Sequence record: KT184315.1
Strand: one strand, 5' to 3'
Length of the DNA stretch: 64,000 nt
Source of the DNA: Enterobacteria phage KhF3
Positions within the stretch are counted from its first letter, which is position 1. The number at the start of each line of letters is the position of its first letter. This document shows, in pieces, positions 20,691 to 38,480 of this stretch. Under the pieces are notes generated by a model. The model was not told the DNA's origin and made no database searches. It was given only the letters and a program-made list of their open reading frames with translations. The translations under genes and the position numbers were made by a program.

Positions 20691-21797
20691 TTAGTCTGGT
20701 TTAGCGTCAGAACGAACGTCTACCAGCAACTGAGGACGTGTGCAGTATGGCAGCATGTAAGAGTGAGCTTCAAAGTCAATACCTTCGTCACGGTCTTTTT
20801 CGTATTCGAATACGTACAGTTCCTGACCAAGTGTATTTGCATAACCCATCTTAGGACATGGACCATATGCCACTTCGAAGATGTTGTTTGCTTCACCCAG
20901 CATAGAAACGTTAGGGAAAGCATGACCTACACCAACAGTTGCTGCTACACTATCAATACTCACCAGAGTGTGAACCTTACCACGCTTATCTTTGAACTTA
21001 CCGTTGTACTGGACAAACTTAACACCACCGTAGTAGAAAGTGTTCATGTGAGCCTGAACGCCGTCAGTACCACCAGTTCTCAGAGAACCAGTAATCTGTT
21101 GCCAAGCCAGCGGAGTCTGCTGTGCAAGATAAGCGTCACGAATCTTAGGATGTTTAGTAAGCTTGCTGAAGAACACACGGTCAACAACTACGTGAATTTC
21201 TTCACCGTTGATTACAGTGCCAGTCTTAGCTTCATCTTCCATGTGCATACGCAGTTCTTCAATAGAAGCGTCGATGTCAGCATTAGGGTTGTCAAGGTCG
21301 AAGTAAATAGTCTTCTTCTCAACGTCGAACTGCTTGTACAGGTCAGCGTACAGAGTACCACGAGCATCAACAACTTTACCCTTCAGAGCTTGCATAAACA
21401 GGAACTCACGAGTAATATCGAACTTGGTACGAATCTTCATCAGCTTCTTGGCACGTACTACAGCTTCAGTAGTCAGTTCGTTTGCAGTGCCTGGCTGACG
21501 TACACCCTGAATCTCATCAGGAGTAATGCTTTCAACTTCTTTGAAGTACATCATTGGGAAGCTGATTTGACGAACACGCTCAGGTGCGCTAGTCTCTGCT
21601 TTACGGCTATCACGGTCTACCGCATCAAGCAAGCTAACATCCCAATCAGTCAAGTCCATAAGGAAAGTAGTTTGGGTGATTGGTGCTGAACGGAATAGAC
21701 CTAAGTTGGAAATATACCCATAAGTATTTGGGATAGACTGGACTTCACCAGTCAGGTCAGCAAGGAAAAATCTGCTTTTTTCAGAATTAGTCAACAT
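20691..21797 (-). CDS. Major capsid protein
   Basis: 368 aa; follows protease/scaffold and small decoration-like gene; strong codon usage. Confidence 0.7.
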   Translation of the reverse strand: MLTNSEKSRFFLADLTGEVQSIPNTYGYISNLGLFRSAPITQTTFLMDLTDWDVSLLDAVDRDSRKAETSAPERVRQISFPMMYFKEVESITPDEIQGVRQPGTANELTTEAVVRAKKLMKIRTKFDITREFLFMQALKGKVVDARGTLYADLYKQFDVEKKTIYFDLDNPNADIDASIEELRMHMEDEAKTGTVINGEEIHVVVDRVFFSKLTKHPKIRDAYLAQQTPLAWQQITGSLRTGGTDGVQAHMNTFYYGGVKFVQYNGKFKDKRGKVHTLVSIDSVAATVGVGHAFPNVSMLGEANNIFEVAYGPCPKMGYANTLGQELYVFEYEKDRDEGIDFEAHSYMLPYCTRPQLLVDVRSDAKPD

Positions 21798-27777: not shown

Positions 27778-27941
27778 AGGAGAAACCACAATGTACGTCA
27801 GAGACATACTGTATAAGTCTTCTTATAAAGTATAGCTCTGTAAAAAAGCCCTGTCTAAAAATACTCTTCGGTAGCGAAAGGAAGAATACTTATAGCAGGG
27901 CATTATTATTATTTTAATTGAGAGAGAGTAAAATAACTTGG

Positions 27942-28014
27942 AGAATCCGAAGGGACTCGAACCCTTATAAACCTGTTTTGCAGACAGGAACATAGCCATT
28001 TCTGTCACGGATTC
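27942..28014 (-). tRNA. tRNA-Cys (anticodon GCA)
   Basis: Manual fold: T-arm AAGGG-ACTCGAA-CCCTT (plus view), 7-bp acceptor, anticodon loop CTGCAAA, U73, CCA encoded. Confidence 0.7.
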
Positions 28015-28021
28015 AAATTGG

Positions 28022-28111
28022 AGGAAGATACCAGACTTGAACTGGTACACCGATTTCTCAGCTACTGGCAGTTTAGCAAACTGCTCCCTTACCTTTTAGG
28101 GTTAATCTTCC
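28022..28111 (-). tRNA. tRNA-Ser (anticodon GCT), class II
   Basis: T-arm ACCAG-ACTTGAA-CTGGT, 21-nt variable arm, anticodon loop TTGCTAA, perfect 7-bp acceptor. Confidence 0.7.
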
Positions 28112-28112
28112 A

Positions 28113-28847
28113 TTATTTCTGTAATGCGTTCTTCATTTCTGGTGTTGCAATAGTGTCAATCACACCAGTTTTACAAGCATCATCAAACCAGTCTGGTAAG
28201 ATACCTGCTAAGAACCCATTGATATTCGTTTTAAGGTACTCTGCAATAAGAGCAGCTTCTTCTTCAATCATCTGCACAACTTCATCTGCATAAGCTGTAA
28301 TCTTCGAAATACCTTCATTAATCTTACTAACAGCTTGGTTAGCTAAATCAGAAATAGTATCAAGACCTTTGTCAATAGCATCTTGTAAGTCACTTAATAC
28401 ATCATTAACGACATCTAGTGCACTGTTAATTGTGTCAATAGCTTTTTGACCATATTCTGTAGCAACGCCCATAATACCACTAAACGGTGTACAGCCAACT
28501 TGTTCCCCTGCTGCACCCATAACATTGGAATACCCCTTTGCTACCTGCATACGTGATGAAAACTCATCAATAGACTTTTGACCATAGTCTGTTAAGGTCT
28601 TAGTAGTCGCTGTAGTGCTTGTAAGGCTTGTTGTAAAGCTGTTTAGAAGGACTGTTGTAAGTCCAGCAGCAACAAGTTTCTCCTTCATTGTAGGGTCTGT
28701 TACAGAGCTAATAGAACTTACAAGTGATGTAGAGGCAGCTACGGTTCCACCGAGAACTGCTGCACCAGTAATAAGGGGATTAGAAAACCCTCTACCGGTT
28801 TTTAAGAGATTAAAAATCTCCTTACCTTGTTCTGTCATCTCTTTCAT
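28113..28847 (-). CDS. Hypothetical protein (Ser/Thr-rich) embedded in tRNA region
   Basis: Start moved to internal ATG at 28847 because track start 28910 overlaps tRNA-Phe. Confidence 0.4.
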   Translation of the reverse strand: MKEMTEQGKEIFNLLKTGRGFSNPLITGAAVLGGTVAASTSLVSSISSVTDPTMKEKLVAAGLTTVLLNSFTTSLTSTTATTKTLTDYGQKSIDEFSSRMQVAKGYSNVMGAAGEQVGCTPFSGIMGVATEYGQKAIDTINSALDVVNDVLSDLQDAIDKGLDTISDLANQAVSKINEGISKITAYADEVVQMIEEEAALIAEYLKTNINGFLAGILPDWFDDACKTGVIDTIATPEMKNALQK

Positions 28848-28865
28848 TAAGCACCTTTGTAATTG

Positions 28866-28940
28866 GTAGTCCAGTGGGATTTGAACCCTCTTCTCATGTT
28901 TTTCAGACACGCGCTTTAACCATATAAGCTACTTGGACTA
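28866..28940 (-). tRNA. tRNA-Phe (anticodon GAA)
   Basis: T-loop ATTTGAA (plus view), 7/7 acceptor pairing, anticodon loop CTGAAAA. Confidence 0.65.
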
Positions 28941-28948
28941 TAAATTGG

Positions 28949-29021
28949 GGTGACCTACGGGATTTGAACCCGTATAGACCATGTTCACAGCATGGGTCAT
29001 TACCATTTATGATAAGGCCAC
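28949..29021 (-). tRNA. tRNA-His (anticodon GTG)
   Basis: Perfect T-stem and anticodon stem, loop CTGTGAA, discriminator C73, CCA encoded. Confidence 0.7.
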
Positions 29022-29055
29022 ATTTAAGGACTCTCGTAAGAATCCTTAGAAGTGG

Positions 29056-29128
29056 CAGCGGCATAAGGATTTGAACCTTAATAGGACAGCTTCAGAGACT
29101 GTTGCATTGCCAGTTATGCTATACCGCT
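29056..29128 (-). tRNA. tRNA-Gln (anticodon CTG)
   Basis: T-arm TAAGG-ATTTGAA-CCTTA, anticodon loop CTCTGAA, G73. Confidence 0.65.
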
Positions 29129-29136
29129 AAATTTGG

Positions 29137-29212
29137 TACTCCATATCGGATTCGAACCGATACATAACACAGATTTTAAGTCTGGCCTCTCTGCCAATTG
29201 GAGTAATGGAGC
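29137..29212 (-). tRNA. tRNA with anticodon TAA (Leu codon UUA) but class-I length
   Basis: Perfect T-arm ATCGG-ATTCGAA-CCGAT, A73, CCA encoded; anticodon loop CTTAAAA; 7-nt variable region only. Confidence 0.55.
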
Positions 29213-29217
29213 ATTGG

Positions 29218-29290
29218 CGGGGGATGTTGGAATTGAACCAACTTCTTCGATTTCAAAGACCGAGGTTTTAACCTTGTAAACTAATCCCCT
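29218..29290 (-). tRNA. tRNA-Gln (anticodon TTG)
   Basis: T-arm GTTGG-AATTGAA-CCAAC, anticodon loop CTTTGAA, G73. Confidence 0.65.
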
Positions 29291-29298
29291 TTAAATCT

Positions 29299-29856
29299 TT
29301 ACTTTCTCAGTGGATGAATAAAGAATGCCAACATAACTCTTTCCCTTGAGAATGCTCTTTCTTCTGGGACAACACTTTTTAGTTTCCATCCAATATAAAT
29401 TCTCCAGTAAAACTGTTTACCAAAGACTTTAATTGATGGGATAAAGGCGAATAATCCCCAAGCATTACTGTTCCACATTAGGAGATAACCAGTCTGATTA
29501 TCTTCAGGGTCAGAACTTACGTTGATATTACCTTTCCACTTAGTAACATCTTTTACATCTCTTCCTAATACATGGTAAGAGAAGTTATAAGCTTTGTTTC
29601 TCCAGAGCCATCCGACTCTTTGCATGTAGACGCCTAGTTTACCAATCCATCTAATATTAGCCCATCTTTTAACGTGACCTTCATCACCATCAATTGGGTT
29701 GTCATATGTCTCCATCCATCTGAACCCGAAAGGTAAGTGTCCTTTCTTCTCACTGTAGAATGGAACTACAAAAGGTGCTAAGATAACTGCTAAGATTGCT
29801 GCAAATGGTTCTAACAAAGCTAAGAAAATCCATGAAGCATACTTTAAGTATCTCAT
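29299..29856 (-). CDS. Hypothetical membrane protein
   Basis: 185 aa; N-terminal TM WIFLALLEPFAAILAVILAPFVV; Trp-rich. Confidence 0.4.
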   Translation of the reverse strand: MRYLKYASWIFLALLEPFAAILAVILAPFVVPFYSEKKGHLPFGFRWMETYDNPIDGDEGHVKRWANIRWIGKLGVYMQRVGWLWRNKAYNFSYHVLGRDVKDVTKWKGNINVSSDPEDNQTGYLLMWNSNAWGLFAFIPSIKVFGKQFYWRIYIGWKLKSVVPEERAFSRERVMLAFFIHPLRK

Positions 29857-30095
29857 TGTCTAATCCTCGTAAGGAGGTAAATGTTATTATTCGTTTCTAA
29901 ACCTTCTGGTAAAACTATCTCAAAAATAACACTCTTCAGATGTCTACCACCAAAACAATCACGTATAAATCTTTCTACTCTAGCGGGGTCACATAAGTAT
30001 CCCACTTTTAAGAAAATGTGGTGTTCAACACCAATGACCCTGACAAACTCAATACTCTCACAGTTTTCATGTTCAACTACTGTTAATGTTTGCAT
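29853..30095 (-). CDS. Hypothetical protein
   Basis: 80 aa ORF coupled to downstream gene. Confidence 0.4.
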   Translation of the reverse strand: MQTLTVVEHENCESIEFVRVIGVEHHIFLKVGYLCDPARVERFIRDCFGGRHLKSVIFEIVLPEGLETNNNIYLLTRIRQ

Positions 30096-30115
30096 AGTAT
30101 CACCTTTTTATCTGG

Positions 30116-30188
30116 CGCAGGATAAGGGATTCGAACCCCTATTAACAGCTTCGTAGACTGTTGCTCTTTCCATTTGAACTAATCCTGC
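30116..30188 (-). tRNA. tRNA-Arg (anticodon ACG)
   Basis: 7/7 acceptor pairing, T-loop ATTCGAA, anticodon loop CTACGAA. Confidence 0.7.
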
Positions 30189-30196
30189 AAAATTGG

Positions 30197-30271
30197 TGTT
30201 CCAAGACGGATTCGAACCGTCACTAATACAAGGTTTGAGCTTGCATCCTCTGCCAATTGGGATACTGGAAC
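30197..30271 (-). tRNA. tRNA with anticodon CAA (Leu codon UUG) but class-I length
   Basis: Perfect T-arm GACGG-ATTCGAA-CCGTC, A73, anticodon loop CTCAAAC, 6-nt variable region. Confidence 0.55.
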
Positions 30272-30275
30272 ATGG

Positions 30276-30347
30276 TACTCACTAAAGGACTTGAACCTTT
30301 TTCTTCATCTTGTAAGGGTGATGTTTTACCATATAAACTAAGCGAGT
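30276..30347 (-). tRNA. tRNA-Val (anticodon TAC)
   Basis: T-arm AAAGG-ACTTGAA-CCTTT, anticodon loop CTTACAA, A73. Confidence 0.65.
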
Positions 30348-30443
30348 ATGAAAGAGGTCTGGAGTTGTGCCGCTAACTCAACTCCGTGGAATTTGTTACG
30401 GTCTTCAGTTGACTCAAAGCGGTCTTTCACTTGACCTCTGAAT
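30348..30443 (-). ncRNA. Structured non-tRNA spacer (candidate small RNA or processing element)
   Basis: No T-loop signature; hairpin GGAGTTG-N11-CAACTCC at 30361-30385; long-range GAGGTC/GACCTC; contains ACGGTCTTC motif. Confidence 0.3.
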
Positions 30444-30446
30444 TGG

Positions 30447-30519
30447 TGCTCCCACAAGGACTCGAACCCTGATAAGTTGCTTACAAGGCAACCGTAATAA
30501 CCAATTATACGATAGGAGC
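30447..30519 (-). tRNA. tRNA-Thr (anticodon TGT)
   Basis: Perfect anticodon stem GTTGC/GCAAC, loop CTTGTAA, A73. Confidence 0.7.
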
Positions 30520-30529
30520 ATTAATTTGG

Positions 30530-30601
30530 AGCATCCAGAGGGAATCGAACCCTCAACCTCAGTTTGGAAGACTGTAATTTTCCCGTTTAAACTATGGATG
30601 C
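30530..30601 (-). tRNA. tRNA-Gly (anticodon TCC)
   Basis: Perfect acceptor and T-stem, loop CTTCCAA, U73. Confidence 0.7.
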
Positions 30602-30610
30602 ACTAATTGG

Positions 30611-30683
30611 TGGAGTCACCGAGAATTGAACTCGGTTCCCAAGTTTGCAAAACTCGAATTTTAACCATATAAACTATGACCCC
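30611..30683 (-). tRNA. tRNA-Ala (anticodon TGC)
   Basis: G3:U70 wobble pair in acceptor stem (Ala identity element), A73, anticodon loop TTTGCAA. Confidence 0.75.
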
Positions 30684-30692
30684 ATTGTTTGG

Positions 30693-30765
30693 TACAGGTG
30701 GAGGGAATTGAACCCATCGTCTTACTGATTAAGAGTCAGCCGCATAACCATTTTGCTACACCTGC
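30693..30765 (-). tRNA. tRNA-Lys (anticodon CTT)
   Basis: T-loop AATTGAA with weak 3-bp T-stem, anticodon loop CTCTTAA, A73. Confidence 0.6.
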
Positions 30766-30775
30766 ATTAATTTGG

Positions 30776-30849
30776 TACACCTAGAGAGATTCGAACTCAC
30801 ACTGAGCAGATTCTAAGTCTGCTGCCTCTACCAGTTGGGCTATAGGTGC
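30776..30849 (-). tRNA. tRNA with anticodon TAG (Leu codons CUA/CUG) but class-I length
   Basis: Perfect anticodon stem GCAGA/TCTGC, loop CTTAGAA, A73, 5-nt variable region. Confidence 0.55.
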
Positions 30850-31104
30850 ATTAAATCTTTTTAGAGAACTTCTAAGAACCTAAGCAACAAGGCTCCACAA
30901 CAAGCTGTAATAACCTTAGAAGCCCTCTAAAAAGACCTAAATAGGTCTTTGCATAGTCTTGTTTAATCCGGTGACTAGAACCTTTGGAGAGCTTGATATT
31001 ATCTCTTCTCCGTGACACCTACTAGGTGCTTTGACAGTGTACGACAATACACGAGGGATAAACCGACAATGCGAACAAGCATGGACGGAGTAAATCTTAT
31101 TAGG

Positions 31105-31192
31105 CGGTAAGTAAAGGAGTCGAACCCTCACCGTATCTCTACAGTGGCAACTGTTTTCAAGACAGTTTGGCTACCATTAGCCGCTACCTACC
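31105..31192 (-). tRNA. tRNA-Ser (anticodon TGA), class II
   Basis: Perfect anticodon stem ACTGT/ACAGT, loop CTTGAAA, 20-nt variable arm, G73. Confidence 0.7.
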
Positions 31193-31208
31193 CCTAATAA
31201 GACTTTGG

Positions 31209-31288
31209 CATGGGACGGAGGAGTTGAACCCCTTTGAAACGGTTTTGGAGGCCGTTGCTCATGCCTTAGAGTCTTAACATCGTCCCAT
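31209..31288 (-). tRNA. tRNA-Trp (anticodon CCA) with enlarged D-loop
   Basis: Perfect 7-bp acceptor, G73, anticodon loop CTCCAAA; about 7 extra nt in D region. Confidence 0.6.
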
Positions 31289-31433
31289 ATTATAATTCGA
31301 AGCTTACCCTGTTATCTCAACACTGTCAAGCTTCTTCTCAGATTATTTACATGTTCTGGAAAACATGAGATACAGACCACCTCCCTACAGGAAGACCCGC
31401 TAAGGCCGTCTAAGTAATCTGCTAACTATTTGG

Positions 31434-31507
31434 TACACCCTACAGGATTCGAACCTGTAACTAACGATTTAGAAGACCGTTGCTCTATCCAATTGAACTA
31501 AGGGTGC
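31434..31507 (-). tRNA. tRNA-Arg (anticodon TCT)
   Basis: Perfect T-arm ACAGG-ATTCGAA-CCTGT, anticodon loop CTTCTAA. Confidence 0.7.
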
Positions 31508-31756
31508 ATTATCTTTAAAGACTCTCTTAGAAAGCCCTTAAAGATGCCCACCTTATTAATCATACCGTGGGCGAGTACGCCAAATTCTTTGATGAGGGAT
31601 TGGAAGACCTCACTGGTGTTTAGCCTATCAAGCTACTGCCAGAAAAACATTGTCGTTTGCATTTATTTTAAATTTGCAAAATAGACGCTACGCAACGAAA
31701 ACTAAGGTTACTATAAAGTAGTCACATCTCAATGTCAACAACTTTATTGAAATTGG

Positions 31757-31829
31757 TACTGGTAGGTGGAATCGAACCACCGATGTTCCCTTATCAGGGG
31801 AGTGTTATAACCTTCTTAACTATACCAGC
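31757..31829 (-). tRNA. tRNA-Ile (anticodon GAT)
   Basis: Perfect T-arm GGTGG-AATCGAA-CCACC, anticodon loop CTGATAA, A73. Confidence 0.7.
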
Positions 31830-31833
31830 TTGG

Positions 31834-31907
31834 AGGTTCAGATGGGAATCGAACCCACATTCATAGGGCTTATGAGACCCTTGCATTACCTTATCTGCGA
31901 CTGAACC
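31834..31907 (-). tRNA. tRNA-Met (anticodon CAT)
   Basis: Perfect 7-bp acceptor, anticodon loop CTCATAA, three G-C pairs in anticodon stem. Confidence 0.65.
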
Positions 31908-31988
31908 AGAATAAGTACCCTAGTTAGAGAAACTGTTGAGTGGGTGTTTCCAGCCGCGCAGGTGTTTCTCAGTTAAGGGTGAATTTGG

Positions 31989-32061
31989 TAGAAGTGGAGG
32001 GATTCGAACCCATCGCCTGTCAGATTAAAAGTCTGCCGCATCACCATTCTGCTACACTTCC
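31989..32061 (-). tRNA. tRNA-Lys (anticodon TTT)
   Basis: Anticodon loop CTTTTAA, A73, T-arm similar to the other Lys tRNA. Confidence 0.65.
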
Positions 32062-32065
32062 ATTA

Positions 32066-32209
32066 AATTATCTTTGTAGATAAGCTACCCAGACTTGCTT
32101 AAGGTCTGTAGCGATGTGCCTTTTTGGGTTTAAATCTAGAATTTACCCTTTCACCCTTTGTGGTCGCATACTCACAGGTAAGCTTAATAACTTATCTACA
32201 AAGATAATT
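32066..32209. repeat. 19-bp perfect inverted repeat (AATTATCTTTGTAGATAAG) with arms about 106 nt apart
   Basis: Left arm 32066-32084, right arm 32191-32209 (reverse complement identical). Confidence 0.7.
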
Positions 32210-32234
32210 ACCAGACCGTTGTTTATCATCTTAA

Positions 32235-32307
32235 GTGCTACCATTACACCAACTCGACATCTGCCGAGTGAAGGAATCGAACCTTCGCCTTTTCTTTACC
32301 GGAGAAA
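32235..32307 (-). ncRNA. tRNA-like element with all tRNA arms present in circularly permuted order (anticodon GGT)
   Basis: Minus-strand order: anticodon arm TTTCT-CCGGTAA-AGAAA, 4-nt variable, T-arm GAAGG-TTCGATT-CCTTC, 3' acceptor ACTCGGC, linker AGAT, 5' acceptor GTCGAGT, U8, D-arm GTGT-AATGGTA-GCAC; bracketed by 8-bp helix (plus 32213-32220 with 32331-32338). Confidence 0.4.
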
Positions 32308-32524
32308 TAGATTGTTTAAGTTTTGCTGTAAACGGTCTTCTGTAAAATTGTTGAGCCAGACCAAGTTTTATAAATTTTTTCAAAATTAAATTGGCTTGAA
32401 AATATCATACGTACTTGCTGAATTTGGTCTTCTGCTCCTTTAAAGAATACTCGTAAGAACTCTTTAAGGGAGGGGCTAAAATAGCCCTCTCAAACATCAT
32501 TTTGAAATACTTATTATAATTTGG

Positions 32525-32599
32525 CGGTTACGAAGGGATTTGAACCCTCATCATCTCCCGTGACAGGGGAGTATTTTAACCAGATTAAACTACATAACC
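32525..32599 (-). tRNA. tRNA-Asp (anticodon GTC)
   Basis: Perfect anticodon stem CTCCC/GGGAG, loop CTGTCAC, T-loop ATTTGAA, CCA encoded. Confidence 0.7.
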
Positions 32600-32608
32600 T
32601 TTATTTGG

Positions 32609-32693
32609 TGTGCCGTGTAGGAGTCGAACCTACCGAGTCTCAATGACAAGGGATTTACAGTCCCCACCGCTACCATCTACGGGATAACGACAC
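32609..32693 (-). tRNA. tRNA-Tyr (anticodon GTA), class II
   Basis: Perfect T-arm GTAGG-AGTCGAA-CCTAC, 15-nt variable arm, anticodon loop CTGTAAA, A73. Confidence 0.7.
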
Positions 32694-32705
32694 ATTTAAA
32701 TTTGG

Positions 32706-32779
32706 CGGTTAGTCAGGGATTCGAACCCTGTGCCATTCGCTTAACAGGCGACCGCACATACCTTATGTGCTTCCTAACC
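32706..32779 (-). tRNA. tRNA-Asn (anticodon GTT)
   Basis: Perfect T-arm CAGGG-ATTCGAA-CCCTG, anticodon loop CTGTTAA, G73. Confidence 0.7.
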
Positions 32780-32856
32780 TTAATACATTGCCAGACCGTG
32801 TTTTTTCTTTTATCCGCAAAAAGTATTTTGTTGCTGAATACGGTCTTCTGCAAAAT
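32780..32856 (-). ncRNA. Repeated hairpin spacer element (CAGAAGACCGT ... ACGGTCTGG family)
   Basis: 7-bp stem AGACCGT/ACGGTCT enclosing about 40 nt that begins ATTCAGCAA; same arms recur at 32211/32331, 32356/32426, 32943/33008. Confidence 0.35.
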
Positions 32857-32859
32857 TGG

Positions 32860-32933
32860 AGGCGGGTGCAGGAGTCGAACCTGCCGATACCATGCTAATG
32901 AGACATGTGAGACGCCCTTTCTCTATACCCGCA
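32860..32933 (-). tRNA. tRNA with anticodon CAT (Met- or Ile2-type) and unpaired 1:72
   Basis: Perfect T-arm GCAGG-AGTCGAA-CCTGC, D-stem GAGA/TCTC, anticodon loop CTCATTA, first acceptor pair mismatched. Confidence 0.55.
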
Positions 32934-33027
32934 ATTCTTAATGACCAGACCAAATCTATTCTTTGTCCGATTTACCTTCAGATGAATAAGATTAAGTTTG
33001 CTGTAATTGGTCTTCTGTCAAAACTGG

Positions 33028-33102
33028 CGTTCCAGAAGGGATTTGAACCCTCAGATATCCACTTTGAAAGAGTGGTGACTTTACCATTTTGTCTACTGGA
33101 AC
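33028..33102 (-). tRNA. tRNA-Glu (anticodon TTC)
   Basis: 7/7 acceptor pairing, perfect anticodon stem, loop CTTTCAA, G73. Confidence 0.7.
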
Positions 33103-33112
33103 ATTAATTTGG

Positions 33113-33186
33113 TCTCTGTTGGAGGACTTGAACCTCCGGCCTTACCGCCCCAAACGGAACGCTCTACCAAGCTGAGCTAAACAGAG
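33113..33186 (-). tRNA. tRNA-Pro (anticodon TGG)
   Basis: 7/7 acceptor pairing, perfect T-arm GGAGG-ACTTGAA-CCTCC, loop TTTGGGG, A73. Confidence 0.7.
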
Positions 33187-33351: not shown

Positions 33352-34767
33352 TTACCAGATGTAACGGTCAATCATTACTGCTTTGAGCATTACGCTGGTT
33401 GGGTCAAACTTCTCACCACCAAGCAGAGCTTTTAAAGTGGCTGGAGAGAACCCTGATACCATTGCTACACCGTTATCCTTAACAGACACTTCGCAAGTAC
33501 CACTACGGTTTGCTAAGTACCAGAATACCAGTTGTGGCATTTCGTATCCAGCTTTTTTGTACTTACTACGAATTGCTTCAAAGTTTGTACGACCATTTGC
33601 ACCGTCAACCTGATTGAACTCCATATCAGAGAAGATGATAAGCTTACTTGGCATATCTTTCTGAGTCAAGTTGTTTCTCTTACCTGTCTCAAGAATGCGG
33701 TCAAAAGCTGCTTGTAAGTTAGTTGAACCGTATTCAACATGACGCATTACCTGACGATGACGGTTTCGTAAATCACCACTCAGTTCAATGAAGTGAGGGT
33801 TTGTTGAATAAACCATCAACTCATTCTTAAAGCAACCTGTATTACGTTCTGCTACATACAATGCAAGTGAAACACCAATATCAAGAGCAGTAATTGAACC
33901 AAAATTCACCCAAGACATTGAACTTGAAACATCAGACATACATAGAATGTTTTCACCCTCTGCCATCCAGTTTGGTAGTGCTTTCCACTGCTCATTAGCA
34001 ACATCTGCATTACCATACTTAACAGATTTAATCACATCGTATGGGTAAACAGCACCAGCATTAATCTTAGTCTCACCCTTTGATAAGGACTCGATGTAAG
34101 CTTTGTAGCGCTCTCCATCTTTACGGTTAAACAGTTTTTGGTAACGTGCAGCAGCAAGTGAAGGAATCTTGCTGTAATCAATCTTACCAAACTCATTAGC
34201 AGAGATTTTTTGCTCAACTGTATCAGATAGTGCAGACAACAGTGTGCGGTACTCTTTCTCACTCAAGTTGGCAAACTTGCAGAAACGTTTTACAAACTGT
34301 TTGTGGCGTGGTTTTACTCGTGGCAACCACTTAGCTGCTAAACCTGCTGTTGCAGGGTCTAGTAATGCTGCTTCTAAATGTTTGAAGGCATCTGTCTCGA
34401 AACGAGTACCTACGAAGATTTTGAAGTCATCAAAGCGACCAAGTTCTGCAATCTTATCCATAATGCGAAGAACCTGTGTAGGTTCTAAAACTTTATCTTC
34501 AATCGCTTGAAGCAAAACAGTTCTGAAGGCTTTACGCTCACCCATACCTTCTCGTACATCTCGCATATGCAGTAAAATACGAACTGCAACATCAACATCC
34601 TCACGCAAAGCTTTGTAGAACAAGTCTGGTAAGATTTCTACATTGCTACGGCTTGAACCAGCAGCTTTGTAAAAATCTACAAGAGCAGACATTGATGAAG
34701 TATGGTTTACAGCACCATTTTCAGTTCGACCTGCATGAAGGTGCGCATGTTTAAATAACTCGCTCAT
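33352..34767 (-). CDS. vWA-domain protein (MIDAS motif DxSxS) with helical N-terminal domain
   Basis: CMSDVSSSMS (DxSxS) followed by beta-strand LIIFSDMEF; 471 aa. Confidence 0.5.
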   Translation of the reverse strand: MSELFKHAHLHAGRTENGAVNHTSSMSALVDFYKAAGSSRSNVEILPDLFYKALREDVDVAVRILLHMRDVREGMGERKAFRTVLLQAIEDKVLEPTQVLRIMDKIAELGRFDDFKIFVGTRFETDAFKHLEAALLDPATAGLAAKWLPRVKPRHKQFVKRFCKFANLSEKEYRTLLSALSDTVEQKISANEFGKIDYSKIPSLAAARYQKLFNRKDGERYKAYIESLSKGETKINAGAVYPYDVIKSVKYGNADVANEQWKALPNWMAEGENILCMSDVSSSMSWVNFGSITALDIGVSLALYVAERNTGCFKNELMVYSTNPHFIELSGDLRNRHRQVMRHVEYGSTNLQAAFDRILETGKRNNLTQKDMPSKLIIFSDMEFNQVDGANGRTNFEAIRSKYKKAGYEMPQLVFWYLANRSGTCEVSVKDNGVAMVSGFSPATLKALLGGEKFDPTSVMLKAVMIDRYIW

Positions 34768-34848: not shown

Positions 34849-35220
34849 TTATTTTTTGAGGGTTGCAACAGCAGAGAACGTTGGTTTGTTATCTGTCTGA
34901 GACTGACCGCCGTTATCAGGGGTCTTCTTAGTGTCTGCTGCAATTGCTTTCATCTCACCTGCTGAGTGAGTCATGATAGTTTTACCGACCTCAATCATAC
35001 TCTTGATGGTTACGTCATCTGTGTTTAACCCGAACTCTGCAAGCTTAGCAGCATCCCTTGTAACAATCGCTTCAAATAACTTTGCAGCAAACTCAGCAGA
35101 ATTGTCAATGGTCAGTTGAGCTTTTACAAGTGAGCTTTTGTTACGAGAGCCTTTTGGTCTTCCAGATGGGTTTCCAGACTGGCCTTTTTTAAACTGGCCT
35201 TTGTTTGTTCTGTTTTTCAT
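34849..35220 (-). CDS. Hypothetical protein with N-terminal basic GNPSGRPKG motif
   Basis: 123 aa; KKGQSGNPSGRPKGSRNK N-terminus. Confidence 0.45.
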   Translation of the reverse strand: MKNRTNKGQFKKGQSGNPSGRPKGSRNKSSLVKAQLTIDNSAEFAAKLFEAIVTRDAAKLAEFGLNTDDVTIKSMIEVGKTIMTHSAGEMKAIAADTKKTPDNGGQSQTDNKPTFSAVATLKK

Positions 35221-35394
35221 TGGTATGCCTCTTATAAGACCTCTTAAAAGGCTTTTAAGATAAAAGATAGATATCCAGAAAGATATCTGTTTAAATAGCC
35301 TTTTTAGAGGAACCTTTTAAGTTATCTTCTAAGTATTTATAAGCCTACACCTTGTCAAGTACTTTGTCAACAACTTTTTAACTTGCAATAGTTC

Positions 35395-35630: not shown

Positions 35631-35845
35631 AAATCGCAGATATTATAGATTTATATCAAACTGCAAAGAGTCATGGCTATATAACCTCAATTGGAAAGAA
35701 TAGTCACTATGATGCTTTGACTGGAATGTATTTCAGGGCAATGGCTCAATCTAGTGAACAACACTTAATGGTTTCTTCCAGTGAGTTTACTTCGTTTCTC
35801 TATTGCAGCAAAATTATAAATCGCAGGAGAACTGAAAAATGTTAA
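35612..35845 (+). CDS. Hypothetical protein
   Basis: 77 aa; AGAGGA RBS. Confidence 0.4.
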   Translation: MCSSQLEIADIIDLYQTAKSHGYITSIGKNSHYDALTGMYFRAMAQSSEQHLMVSSSEFTSFLYCSKIINRRRTEKC

Positions 35846-36429
35846 CAGTAAGTTTTAATTACAATAGTGATGGCTCTGTATCAATTAATTCACCATATGC
35901 AAATGACCTTCTTAAAGAGCTAGTCAATCAGTGTGATAGAGGTCTTCACTATGTTCAAAATTCTTTTAAACAGAAGACTATTGCTAATAACTTGATGCGT
36001 GTAACAGTGACGGCATCTAATCCAAATTATGACTTTGATAGTGAAAGTCCGTATTCATTAGTTGCGCTTGGAGAGAGCAGCCAATTCAAACTTGTTTGCC
36101 ACGACTCAGAAACATTCCTTAAGGTATTTTCCAACCTTATCCATAATAATAAGTACAGCTACGTTGATGGTAGTGTAAATTTCTATCCAGCAAACTATAC
36201 ATGTTTGTTGGTTGATAATATGAGAAAAAGTAAGCAAGAGCCTACGGAAATTTCATTTGATGTGAACTCTAGTCCAGATGCAGAAACAAGTAAGAACTTT
36301 GATATGAGTTACGCATTGTCACTCAGTAAGAAATCCGAGTTCATTGATTATGTCAATGGATTTGGTTTTAAGTTTGATGAGAGTATGAATCTTAAAAAAC
36401 TTAAGAACCTACTTAAGACCAAAGCTTAA
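35839..36429 (+). CDS. Hypothetical protein
   Basis: 196 aa. Confidence 0.45.
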   Translation: MLTVSFNYNSDGSVSINSPYANDLLKELVNQCDRGLHYVQNSFKQKTIANNLMRVTVTASNPNYDFDSESPYSLVALGESSQFKLVCHDSETFLKVFSNLIHNNKYSYVDGSVNFYPANYTCLLVDNMRKSKQEPTEISFDVNSSPDAETSKNFDMSYALSLSKKSEFIDYVNGFGFKFDESMNLKKLKNLLKTKA

Positions 36430-36476
36430 GTGTGAATAGGGGCTTATGCCCCTTTAACTATTTATAAGGATACTTA

Positions 36477-36848
36477 ATGAAAGCTAAGAGTGCAAAAGAC
36501 TTTTATTGCTTCCTACAATCCTATATCAATTCCGTGCAAAATGGTGAAAGGTACAACCTTAATGATGTTATCCCAACACCTTTGACATGGAGACTCAGTA
36601 AATGGCCTGAAGAAGATATTACACCAACAATCGAACAGCGTACCTACAAACCTGAAATCAATATTCCAGACTCTGAGAATCTATTATACCCAATGTTCCA
36701 TATTGTTGGTCTTGGAAGATTCCTTATGGATATCCAGTATGTAATTGGTAAAGGTTATAAGGTTAAAGGTATTGTCGTTGGTGATGTATCTCCGAATCAC
36801 AAAGGTTATTTTAGACTAAACGCACATTTAGAGGCTGAAAAGAAATGA
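36477..36848 (+). CDS. Hypothetical protein, paralog of N-terminal domain of next gene
   Basis: Shared pattern KAK..DF.......RY....WPE.DI....YKP....LLY....MD.QY with 36845-37978. Confidence 0.5.
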   Translation: MKAKSAKDFYCFLQSYINSVQNGERYNLNDVIPTPLTWRLSKWPEEDITPTIEQRTYKPEINIPDSENLLYPMFHIVGLGRFLMDIQYVIGKGYKVKGIVVGDVSPNHKGYFRLNAHLEAEKK

Positions 36849-37978
36849 TTAAAGCAAAGACTTACCCAGACTTCAAAGAGTTTGTGAAGGGCTTCATTGC
36901 AAACGTAAAGGCTGGTAAGAGATATGATTTTAGAACATATCAAGAGGCTATTTTACCACTTACCTATAGTTCATATTGGCCTGAAGCTGATATTGCAGAA
37001 GTTGAGAAGTTTGACTACAAACCAGACTACAAAGTCCCATTTAGTGATGAGTTGCTTTACAGCGTTGGTGCTCAAATGAGAACTTCTGACTTCTTCATGG
37101 ACTTACAATATGCAATTATCAATGGTAAAGATGTTGATACAGTTTATTGTGAATGGCTGGCAAGGGTTAAACCATTCTCAATGTTGAATGCTAAGTTGAA
37201 GGATGCTATCAAGCCACCAGCAATTACTCAGCAGCCAACAGGTCAAACAGTTAATGAGGGTGGCACACTTACTCTAACCATTCTAGCAACTAACGCCACT
37301 GGATATCAGTGGAAAAAGGATGGTGAGGACATCCCTAGTGCCAATTCTGCAACTTACACAAAACAGTCAGTAGCACCTTCTGACGCTGGTTCATACACTT
37401 GTGTTGTATCTGGAGAAGGTGGAACAAGTGTTACCTCAGATGCAGCAACAGTGACTGTGAACGCACTACCTGTGATTACCAAGCAACCTTCTAACCAGAC
37501 TATTAATGAAGGTGGAAACATCAACTTAGCAGTTACTGCAACAGGTGCAACAGGTTACCAGTGGAAGAAAGATGGCTCTGACATTCCTTCAGCTACAAAT
37601 GATACCTATAGCAAGTCTGGTGCTCTGCCAGCAGATGCAGGTTCATACACTTGCGTTGTAACAGGTGCAGGTGGCTCTGTAACGTCTAACGCAGCAACAG
37701 TTACTGTGAATGCACTTCCGGTAATCACTCAACAGCCAACCAATCAAGAAATCAATGAAGGTGAGACCTTAACACTGAATGTTGTGGCAACAGGTGCAAC
37801 AGGTTACCAGTGGAAGAAAGGTGAGGAAGATATCCTTGATGCAACCGCTGCAACTTACACTAAAGAAGGTGCAACCGCTGCTGATTCAGGAAGCTACACC
37901 TGTGTAGTTACTGGTGCAGGTGGCTCTGTAACATCTAATGCAGCAACAGTTACAGTTAACCCAGCAGGGGAGGCATAA
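36845..37978 (+). CDS. Protein with N-terminal paralogous domain and three tandem Ig-like repeats
   Basis: Three ~80-aa repeats: ATGYQWKKDGxDIPSA...TYT...AGSYTCVVxGxGGxSVTSxAATVTVN. Confidence 0.55.
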   Translation: MIKAKTYPDFKEFVKGFIANVKAGKRYDFRTYQEAILPLTYSSYWPEADIAEVEKFDYKPDYKVPFSDELLYSVGAQMRTSDFFMDLQYAIINGKDVDTVYCEWLARVKPFSMLNAKLKDAIKPPAITQQPTGQTVNEGGTLTLTILATNATGYQWKKDGEDIPSANSATYTKQSVAPSDAGSYTCVVSGEGGTSVTSDAATVTVNALPVITKQPSNQTINEGGNINLAVTATGATGYQWKKDGSDIPSATNDTYSKSGALPADAGSYTCVVTGAGGSVTSNAATVTVNALPVITQQPTNQEINEGETLTLNVVATGATGYQWKKGEEDILDATAATYTKEGATAADSGSYTCVVTGAGGSVTSNAATVTVNPAGEA

Positions 37979-38442
37979 TGCAACTCTCAAGAAAAGGTTT
38001 AGAGGCTATTAAGTTCTTTGAAGGTCTGAAGTTAGAGGCTTACGAAGACTCTGCCGGAATCCCAACAATCGGGTATGGGACAATCCGTATTGACGGAAAA
38101 CCTGTTAAGATGGGTATGAAAATTACTGCTGAACAAGCTGAACAGTATCTTCTTGCAGATGTTGAGAAGTTCGTTGCAGCAGTGAATAAATCTATCAAGG
38201 TTCCAACTTCTCAGAACGAGTTCGATGCACTTGTAAGTGAAACATACAACATCGGTATCACAGCTATGCAGGATTCTACATTTATCAAGCGCCACAATGC
38301 TGGTAATAAGGTCGGTTGTGCAGAAGCTATGCAGTGGTGGAACAAGGTTACAGTCAAAGGTAAGAAGGTCACTTCAAACGGCCTGAAAAACAGACGTAGA
38401 ATGGAAGCTGACATTTATCTTGACAGTGTATATCCAAAGTAA
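37978..38442 (+). CDS. Endolysin, T4-type lysozyme (GH24)
   Basis: N-terminal catalytic region EGLKLEAYEDSAGIPTIGYGT matching T4 lysozyme E..D..T pattern; 154 aa. Confidence 0.8.
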   Translation: MQLSRKGLEAIKFFEGLKLEAYEDSAGIPTIGYGTIRIDGKPVKMGMKITAEQAEQYLLADVEKFVAAVNKSIKVPTSQNEFDALVSETYNIGITAMQDSTFIKRHNAGNKVGCAEAMQWWNKVTVKGKKVTSNGLKNRRRMEADIYLDSVYPK

Positions 38443-38451
38443 TATCTTCAT

Positions 38452-38480
38452 AGGCTCCTTCGGGAGCCTTTTTTATTTTC
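38452..38480 (+). terminator. Rho-independent terminator after endolysin
   Basis: AGGCTCC-TTCG-GGAGCCT followed by TTTTTTATTTT. Confidence 0.65.

Follow-up and report, generated by a model that had tools for sequence, protein, structure and literature searches.

A Hoc-like capsid decoration gene and a stand-alone paralogue of its capsid-binding domain upstream of the endolysin gene of Enterobacteria phage KhF3

Phages of the Felix O1 type carry a capsid decoration protein, known as Hex-Dec in Bas63 (PDB 9NCF chain S), gp20 in Sf14 (9C2D/9C3A chain S) and Gp36 in Felix O1, in which a domain at the N-terminus that binds the capsid (CapBD) is followed by I-set-type Ig-like domains and whose gene lies upstream of that of the endolysin. 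Cryo-EM located orthologues on the capsid (PDB 9NCF_S, 9C2D_S), the N-terminal domain being docked at the centre of the major-capsid-protein hexamers (PMC12609058, PMC11821841). In Sf14 gp20 the residues Arg79 and Arg107 are salt-bridged to the major capsid protein at Asp221 (PMC11821841). Mass spectrometry detected Gp36 in the virions of Felix O1 (score 813, 44% coverage; PMC3185647 Table 4A) and gp20 in those of Sf14 (PMC11821841 Table 1). Comments on the unusual location of the gene appeared in 2010 (PMC3185647) and once more in 2025 (PMC12609058). Bas63 has four Ig domains, Sf14 three and other members one or two, a range already described for the genus (PMC12609058). The mBio paper on a Citrobacter phage contains nothing on a protein of this type.

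T4 Hoc is comparable in being a non-essential monomer at the hexamer centre which holds a string of Ig-like domains, the Ig array being acidic. The capsid-binding domain of Hoc is C-terminal and Hoc binds all hexamers, whereas Hex-Dec is bound to the facet-edge hexamers only, by an N-terminal CapBD that is larger, has a distinct topology and is pseudo-two-fold (PMC12609058).

Organization of the locus

The window, the whole stretch of DNA that was analysed, comprises 64,000 nt of Enterobacteria phage KhF3 (KT184315.1); it is 95-97% identical to Felixounavirus genomes and is a Felixounavirus. Two adjacent reading frames were found at exactly the coordinates given in the first-pass annotation. 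ORF A (36477..36848, plus strand) encodes a 123-aa protein with a pI of 8.6, a stand-alone CapBD paralogue without Ig domains. ORF B (36845..37978, plus strand) encodes the 377-aa orthologue of Hex-Dec. Within ORF B, and on the same strand, the CapBD (aa 1-118) occupies 36845..37198 and is followed by three Ig-like repeats at 37217..37468 (aa 125-208), 37469..37717 (aa 209-291) and 37718..37975 (aa 292-377, including a short C-terminal tail). The pair had been described as lying directly upstream of the endolysin, and it does: the stop codon of ORF B overlaps (TAATG) the start of a gene at 37978..38442 (plus strand) for a 154-aa phage lysozyme of glycoside hydrolase family 24 (PF00959, E 1e-40).

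The stop codon of ORF A and the start codon of ORF B overlap as ATGA. Overlaps of this type reflect ordinary translational coupling, and ORF A would be coupled to ORF B in this way. A programmed frameshift fusing A to B was considered and rejected; the junction, GAA AAG AAA TGA, is no canonical slippery heptamer.

The A-B-lysin block is limited upstream by a rho-independent terminator at 36439..36452 (plus strand), a GC-rich hairpin GGGGCTTATGCCCC followed by TTTAACTATTTAT, which was read from the sequence 3' of a gp38-like gene. A terminator is annotated at the homologous site of wV8 and of AYO145A, and the Felix O1 counterpart is t38 (PMC3185647 Table 2). A simple terminator scan did not list this hairpin because its T tail is weak. 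The scan did return the intrinsic terminator that ends the block at 38452..38479 (plus strand), AGGCTCCTTCGGGAGCCT followed by a T run, for which wV8 and AYO145A have an annotation at the same place and which corresponds to t35 in Felix O1 (PMC3185647 Table 2). A sigma-70 promoter scan gave fewer matches than shuffled sequences, and none between the upstream terminator and ORF A. The decamer TATTTATAAG was tried as a shared late-promoter motif and dropped; it occurs only at 35334 and 36459, the flanks of these sites align unconvincingly, and it is missing from the region upstream of the major capsid protein gene.

The gene for the major capsid protein, the presumed docking partner of the CapBD of ORF B, was placed at 20700..21797 on the minus strand by tblastn with Felix O1 Gp58 (98% identity, 366 aligned positions, query residues 1-364). 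It is 14.7 kb distant from the A/B pair and on the opposite strand, in agreement with the earlier remark that the pair stands outside the structural module.

ORF B, an orthologue of Hex-Dec

When searched against the PDB with phmmer, ORF B matched 9ncf_S (E 3.4e-268) and 9c2d_S (E 1.6e-168), and its residues 1-122 differ from the Bas63 chain at two positions only. The domain architecture and the gene position upstream of the endolysin are the same as those of the Bas63, Sf14 and Felix O1 proteins. Arg79 and Arg107 are both present and are invariant across all aligned B-family sequences. The dN/dS ratio is about 0.04 for the CapBD and 0.10 for the first Ig domain. ORF B is orthologous to Bas63 Hex-Dec, Sf14 gp20 and Felix O1 Gp36, and the domain of about 120 aa that it shares with ORF A is the CapBD and no envelope-targeting module. 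Work published in 2025 had already described the protein with its fold, its site on the capsid and its odd place in the genome, and its presence in virions has been known since 2010; the observation made in the first-pass annotation is real but largely ordinary.

Three tandem, Ig-like repeats of about 80 aa had been described for ORF B, a description that the present data bear out. The repeats are 84, 83 and 86 aa long and pairwise 67-72% identical in protein (repeat 2 shares 70% with repeat 1 and 72% with repeat 3) and 72-79% identical in DNA. They match Pfam Ig_3, Ig_2 and I-set with E values of 7e-33 to 7e-25, in three stretches each. Structure prediction, which had been suggested as a check, was applied to repeat 1: its AF2 model is an Ig sandwich (pLDDT 97.3), and Foldseek matched it best, with TM values up to 0.92, to Ig C2/I-set domains in the PDB. 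Tandem Repeats Finder reported only trivial repeats of 7-9 nt at the locus and missed the Ig repeats because their DNA is too diverged. With three C-terminal tandem Ig-like domains ORF B falls within the span of one to four, and the three domains are acidic (pI 4.2).

The earlier statement that Ig-like domains decorate virions fits the orthologues, which were seen on the capsid by cryo-EM (9NCF_S, 9C2D_S) and in virions by mass spectrometry. Carried over from these data, the location of ORF B in the virion is expected to be the centre of the facet-edge hexamers. A monomeric CapBD (about 118 aa) would occupy the depression at the middle of the facet-edge (quasi-3-fold, pentamer-proximal) hexamers, of which the T=9 head has 60, and would be held there partly by Arg79 and Arg107, whose partner on the major capsid protein is Asp221. 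Pointing outward, the three acidic Ig-like domains would form a flexible, Hoc-like fibre. T4 Hoc has been proposed to bind glycans or cell surfaces, and by analogy the fibre of ORF B probably adheres weakly to mucus, cells or other surfaces, or tunes particle aggregation.

PHROG profiles named 'Hoc-like head decoration' match only the Ig region of ORF B (aa 120-290), and no Hoc chain was among the CapBD matches in PDB sequence and structure searches. The anchors of the two proteins are non-homologous, N-terminal in ORF B and C-terminal in Hoc; ORF B is an analogue of Hoc and no member of the Hoc family. T5 pb10 and other Ig-bearing decoration proteins (5LXK, 8ZVI; Moo19, 9D7Z; N4, 9E99) have Ig domains detectably similar to those of ORF B, but the capsid-binding domains of T5 pb10, 8ZVI and the Moo19 and N4 proteins are unrelated to its CapBD.

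Many GenBank records label ORF B 'tail protein', which is an annotation error according to the authors of the Bas63 study (PMC12609058). A tail protein identity was rejected here, the only non-Ig matches being the capsid chains 9ncf_S and 9c2d_S, and the annotation should be replaced by Hoc-like capsid decoration protein. The database label is the sole inconsistency with the identity of ORF B.

ORF A, a paralogue of the capsid-binding domain

The counterparts of ORF A are Felix O1 gp37, wV8 gp42 and VpaE1 ORF40, and the family is phrog_4463, labelled 'unknown function'. The claim that the two adjacent proteins are paralogues over an N-terminal domain of about 120 aa was confirmed across about 100-120 aa. 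BLASTP of ORF A against ORF B gave 37% identity over 101 aa (E 3e-17), the Smith-Waterman score was 150 as compared with 28 +/- 5 for 2000 shuffles (z = 23.7), and PHROG cross-matches link ORF A with the CapBD of ORF B. The shared motifs quoted earlier are real: in a 17-sequence alignment W43-P44-E45, D47-I48, Y57, P59, L69-L70-Y71 and M84-D85 are invariant in both families and Q87 is nearly so.

The AF2 model of ORF A (pLDDT 66.5, pTM 0.68) was built on an alignment that included B homologues and is ill-defined at residues 22-78; its only matches are 9ncf_S and 9c2d_S (TM 0.69-0.71). ORF A is predicted, with moderate model confidence, to share the CapBD fold, which is all that it has in common with Hex-Dec (about 35% identity). 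All A-family members have Gly in place of Arg79 and Asn, His or Gln in place of Arg107, and ORF A ends at aa 123. It has neither the two Arg contacts nor an Ig domain and is therefore a paralogue and no Hex-Dec; Hex-Dec further differs from it in its reported virion presence. No transmembrane segment or signal-like region was found in ORF A. The literature searched yielded no discussion of ORF A (Felix O1 gp37) as a stand-alone paralogue with the CapBD fold.

The A-B-lysin triad is found in Felixounavirus, Mooglevirus, Suspvirus and one divergent metagenomic contig of 87 kb. Single-copy outgroups are nearer to B (34-36% identity) than to A (26%), and the A clade has 90% bootstrap support. From these sequence comparisons ORF A is a derived, faster-evolving copy and an old tandem duplicate of the CapBD alone. 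It is very probable that the locus as a whole consists of the Felixounavirus hexamer decoration protein (ORF B) and an old duplicate of its CapBD (ORF A), next to a lysin gene whose position is inherited gene order.

ORF A is intact, with a constant length of 122-124 aa, in about 230 records from four lineages, and the family has the invariant core VGLG.FLMD.QYV...GY. Its dN/dS ratio is about 0.13 at dS above 1 (0.07 for the lysin), and ORF A is under purifying selection. One internal deletion of about 223 nt is common to 19 records, and A is a pseudogene in this clade. Hex-Dec is intact in four of the five phages of the clade that were inspected (REP11, Tf, mio and SP116), and dN/dS of its CapBD within the clade is 0.01-0.06 at dS up to 0.43. 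ORF A is dispensable, being pseudogenised in one clade while B stays constrained.

A deep profile search with the CapBD recovered 13 clusters only, all of them Felix O1-like or small metagenomic relatives. This narrow family with its swapped Ig types (I-set or Big_2) could serve for display on therapeutic phages of the Felix O1 type. A repetitive 632-aa protein (P0102) from the profile search was discarded as a spurious low-complexity match. A distant CapBD+Big_2 protein (L013) has an upstream neighbour that was rejected as a further paralogue (E 3.6); the neighbour's position, size and C-terminal resemblance suggest a gp38-like gene.

The role of ORF A and the adjacent endolysin gene

The residual interest of the locus is ORF A, a conserved, late and apparently non-virion copy of the CapBD with a natural knockout clade. 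It provides a tractable system for the questions of how a decoration protein is restricted to one hexamer class and of what 'orphan' capsid-binding domains do. Transcripts of the Felix O1 lysin (ORF35) peak at 25 min and those of ORF36 and ORF37 at 60 min, together with the morphogenesis genes (PMC3185647 Table 3); by analogy, ORF A is probably transcribed late together with ORF B.

The role proposed here is a tentative one, put at somewhat below an even chance: ORF A may be a non-essential accessory capsomer ligand that acts off the mature virion. At the procapsid or assembly stage it would still bind capsid hexamers, or capsomers, at their acidic centre. Against a capsid role of ORF A stand the replacement of both gp20 Arg contacts (Gly; Asn, His or Gln) and the moderate confidence of the model.

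It is unlikely that ORF A is instead a structural, Ig-less plug on the 20 facet-centre (true-3-fold) hexamers or on a few special hexamers near the portal. ORF A has the predicted fold of the hexamer-centre plug, is expressed late with B and, with a pI of 8.6, is basic where the hexamer centre is acidic (PMC11821841); moreover, A differs from B at exactly the two Arg contact positions, and the Hex-Dec-free hexamers differ in the geometry of Asp221 (PMC11821841). However, both cryo-EM studies reported no density on these other hexamers (PMC12609058, PMC11821841), and the Sf14 maps include an asymmetric one at 4.5 A (PMC11821841). Gp37 is also missing from the 17 virion proteins of Felix O1 identified with at least 25% coverage, though proteins of 9.7-13 kDa were detected (PMC3185647), and its orthologue VpaE1 ORF40 is not named among the virion proteins which the VpaE1 text adds to the Felix O1 list. 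That the proteomes lack ORF A orthologues is an argument from silence. Similarly doubtful is a variant in which ORF A docks on the procapsid or on the 20 facet-centre hexamers and thereby sets or sharpens the edge-only pattern of Hex-Dec. If true, ORF A would represent a paralogue-based 'masking' mechanism that patterns a capsid decoration, and the A-less clade (REP11, mio, SP116, Tf) would show altered Hex-Dec occupancy.

It is considered quite improbable that ORF A is a dedicated chaperone or assembly partner that folds Hex-Dec or loads it on the capsid. The ATGA overlap suggests coupled, roughly equimolar synthesis, and A is co-expressed late with B and absent from virions, as chaperones are; yet in the clade in which A is a pseudogene Hex-Dec is intact in REP11, Tf, mio and SP116 and its CapBD is strongly constrained, and A is missing from the lineages that have one CapBD gene.

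The first-pass annotation had raised the possibility that the pair targets the cell envelope. A joint action of the pair and the endolysin on the envelope, for instance by targeting, regulating or assisting lysis, is highly improbable. The reading draws on the immediately adjoining lysozyme gene with its stop/start overlap, conserved across genera, on Felix O1-type phages having no identified holin beside the lysin (PMC3185647), and on the ability of Ig-like domains to bind carbohydrates. Against it, the shared domain is a structurally defined CapBD that docks on hexamers (PMC12609058, PMC11821841), ORF B is a virion protein by orthology, A is free of Ig domains, no transmembrane segment was found in either protein, and the lysin peak in Felix O1 (25 min) is separate from that of ORF36 and ORF37 (60 min). 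A single CapBD gene also lies directly upstream of the lysozyme gene in distant lineages (L014-L016), and the adjacency is an old conserved synteny, inherited gene order with no shared lysis function. For ORF B the envelope reading is already largely refuted. A function as accessory to holin, antiholin or spanin was rejected as well: the maximum Kyte-Doolittle means over 19 residues, 1.14 in A and 1.04 in B, stay under about 1.6, and the timing of the lysin differs.

That ORF A is a decaying, functionless duplicate is most improbable and is already contradicted by the selection analysis: A evolves faster than B, has no known function and was lost in the 19-record clade without obvious consequence, but its length and core are conserved across four lineages and its dN/dS stays low at dS above 1.

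ORF A, ORF B and the lysozyme block

The window derives from a Felixounavirus, and the 2.7-kb region described here shares 95-97% identity with SeKF_63, Ro111lw and wV8, among many others. Two ORFs lie on the plus strand at exactly the positions of the first-pass annotation, ORF A (36477-36848, 123 aa) and ORF B (36845-37978, 377 aa), followed by a phage lysozyme gene (37978-38442, +, 154 aa, Pfam match PF00959). The stop codon of A overlaps the start of B (ATGA) and that of B overlaps the lysozyme start (TAATG). The block is bordered upstream by a GC-rich hairpin (36439-36452), which carries a terminator annotation in wV8, AYO145A and Felix O1, and downstream by a strong intrinsic terminator (38452-38479). 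The proposed paralogy of A and B was borne out by BLASTP (37% identity over 101 aa, E 3e-17), by a local alignment score 23.7 standard deviations above 2000 shuffles, and by the motifs noted earlier, which show no or almost no variation across a 17-sequence alignment spanning the two families. The domain common to A and B is a capsid-binding domain (CapBD).

The three repeats of ORF B (84, 83 and 86 aa) share 67-72% identity in protein and 72-79% in DNA. Their suggested Ig-like nature holds: they match Pfam Ig_3, Ig_2 and I-set (E 7e-33 to 7e-25), and repeat 1 was modeled as an Ig sandwich (pLDDT 97.3), with Ig C2/I-set domains and decoration chains of phages Moo19 and N4 as best PDB matches. 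ORF B matches two solved cryo-EM chains, 9NCF chain S (Bas63 'immunoglobulin-like domain protein', E 3.4e-268; only two differences over residues 1-122) and 9C2D/9C3A chain S (Shigella phage Sf14 'tail protein', E 1.6e-168). The protein was named Hex-Dec in the Bas63 study, where its Ig-like domains, one to four across the genus, were flexible and unresolved, its gene lay over 10 kb away from the structural module, and 'tail protein' was identified as a wrong annotation in most genomes (PMC12609058). In Sf14 gp20 the first 118 residues make up the CapBD, salt bridges link Arg79 and Arg107 to Asp221 in three subunits of the capsid, no gp20 sits on the true-3-fold hexamers, and mass spectrometry found gp20 in particles (PMC11821841). 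Felix O1 virions contain Gp36 (Mascot score 813, 44% coverage; PMC3185647). The location outside the structural module was likewise found in the window, where the major capsid protein gene (20700-21797, -) is 14.7 kb away.

ORF B is thus a member of the Hex-Dec/gp20 family, showing every defining feature that could be tested; given the solved orthologues, the virion detection and the published gene position, it is a known protein of known location, and the observation as first made is already known. The path from the gene to its presumed capsid site is drawn from near-identical solved orthologues. Targeting of the cell envelope by the pair, also suggested, is unsupported, the shared domain being a capsid-binding one. 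By analogy with T4 Hoc, we infer that the Ig fiber may serve in adhesion to surfaces or mucus and in the control of aggregation. ORF B works like T4 Hoc, but the anchors are non-homologous, with reversed domain order and a distinct fold, and Hoc-like profile hits are confined to the Ig part.

Distribution and descent of the capsid-binding domain

Of 252 Felix O1-like records, about 230 keep ORF A (73-100% identity), directly 5' of B every time. The A-B-lysozyme triad occurs in Felixounavirus, Mooglevirus and Suspvirus, and in a far more divergent 87-kb metagenomic contig whose A copy is 44% identical to that of the window. A CapBD profile search of 1.84 billion representatives returned only 13 clusters, the remote ones being single-copy. 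In a neighbor-joining tree the A family forms a separate clade (90% bootstrap). The five single-copy outgroups are nearer to B (34-36% identity in three, 25-29% in two) than to A (26% in every case). From the distribution, family survey and tree we conclude that the CapBD-lysozyme adjacency is the ancestral gene order, that the duplication is old, and that A is the derived, faster-evolving copy.

The CapBD anchor is combined with differing display modules. Among the remote relatives, P0101 carries CapBD+Ig; P0099, P0100 and P0103 (locus L013) carry a Big_2-type bacterial Ig domain in place of I-set domains, and P0104 (L014-L016) only a Lys/Ser-rich tail. P0104 also has a lysozyme gene immediately 3' and the same DUF2828/DUF5681 neighborhood.

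The role of ORF A

By synteny and length ORF A corresponds to Felix O1/FO1a gp37, wV8 gp42 and VpaE1 ORF40, and belongs to phrog_4463, labeled 'unknown function'. Neither cryo-EM paper mentions the paralogue ('paralog', 'gp19' and 'gp21' do not occur in PMC11821841, nor does 'paralog' in PMC12609058). Its AlphaFold2 model, of moderate confidence (pLDDT 66.5, pTM 0.68; residues 22-78 poorly defined), resembles the two solved CapBD chains alone (TM 0.69-0.71, E about 1e-6), all other matches being no better than E 0.3. The invariant core is VGLG.FLMD.QYV...GY. The two arginines anchoring gp20 never vary in the B family; the A family carries Asn, His or Gln for Arg107 and Gly for Arg79. Arg79 is also missing from some remote Ig-bearing members in the alignment, which limits the weight of these replacements in A. 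Lacking both Ig domains and arginine contacts, ORF A is a CapBD paralogue and not a Hex-Dec. It is basic (pI 8.6; B CapBD 5.45, Ig array 4.2), and no transmembrane segment was found in A or B.

The most likely reading, put forward tentatively, is that the ancestral activity of this fold persists in A, which would dock on the acidic center of capsid hexamers or capsomers off the mature virion and may be a non-essential accessory in head assembly. In Felix O1, ORF36 and ORF37 peak at 60 min, as do morphogenesis genes, and the lysin (ORF35) and ORF38 at 25 min (PMC3185647). The data argue against an abundant virion component: Gp37 is missing from the 17 Felix O1 virion proteins, though proteins of 9.7-13 kDa were detected (PMC3185647); of 22 virion proteins identified in VpaE1, the text names only gp54, gp58 and gp68 as additions to the Felix O1 list; and both cryo-EM studies record an absence of density on hexamers without Hex-Dec (PMC12609058, PMC11821841).

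An obligatory chaperone of Hex-Dec is excluded by a Felixounavirus clade of 19 records without A (REP5-12, Tf, fBSPA4, fKMPT1, CECAV_FGS030, mio, EcF-vB, SP116 (deposited twice), Z31, P54 and CECAV_041), a ready-made natural knockout. All share one 231-nt remnant of A that has lost its ATG and about 223 nt internally, with the upstream hairpin region and the B ribosome-binding site kept; this shared pattern points to a single inherited loss. The pseudogene is seen at 2306-2497 in L003 (REP11) and in L004 (Z31), and in L019-L021. Of five phages inspected, REP11, Tf, mio and SP116 have an intact Hex-Dec gene, and Z31 alone has a broken one (134-aa and 55-aa pieces). The Hex-Dec CapBD is under strong purifying selection in the clade (dN/dS 0.01-0.06, dS up to 0.43); Hex-Dec is therefore independent of A. 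Median pairwise Nei-Gojobori dN/dS is 0.13 for A, 0.04 for B CapBD, 0.10 for the first Ig repeat and 0.07 for lysozyme; the low value marks A as a functional gene, and this purifying selection excludes a decaying relic. A lysis-membrane component is excluded by the lack of a transmembrane segment and the different timing.

Neighboring genes and other observations

A total of 26 tRNA genes (27939-33186, -) lie just upstream of the divergent region before the A-B locus; according to the papers, Felix O1 has 22 and wV8 23. Between them and the CapBD-lysozyme block are a DUF2828/DUF7788 protein (33352-34767, -), annotated in relatives as 'RNA-binding protein' or vWFA, and a DUF5681 protein (34849-35220, -); the distant single-CapBD metagenomic lineage L014 keeps the DUF2828/DUF5681 neighborhood. 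A gp38-like ORF (35839-36429, +, 196 aa, phrog_4034 'unknown function') is always directly 5' of the CapBD gene(s), including the remote contigs L014 (185 aa, faint Phage_Inh_N match) and, probably, L013 (205 aa); expression of the Felix O1 gp38 gene is highest at 25 min, a timing not shared by gp36 and gp37 (PMC3185647). The decamer TATTTATAAG has only two plus-strand copies, at 35334 in the divergent intergenic region and at 36459 upstream of ORF A, each just 5' of a plus-strand gene block; their flanks align poorly, and the decamer may be a promoter element or have arisen by chance. The 147-kb record GU169904.1 'Staphylococcus phage SA1' contains a Felix O1-like locus (about 88% identity) and is probably chimeric or contaminated.
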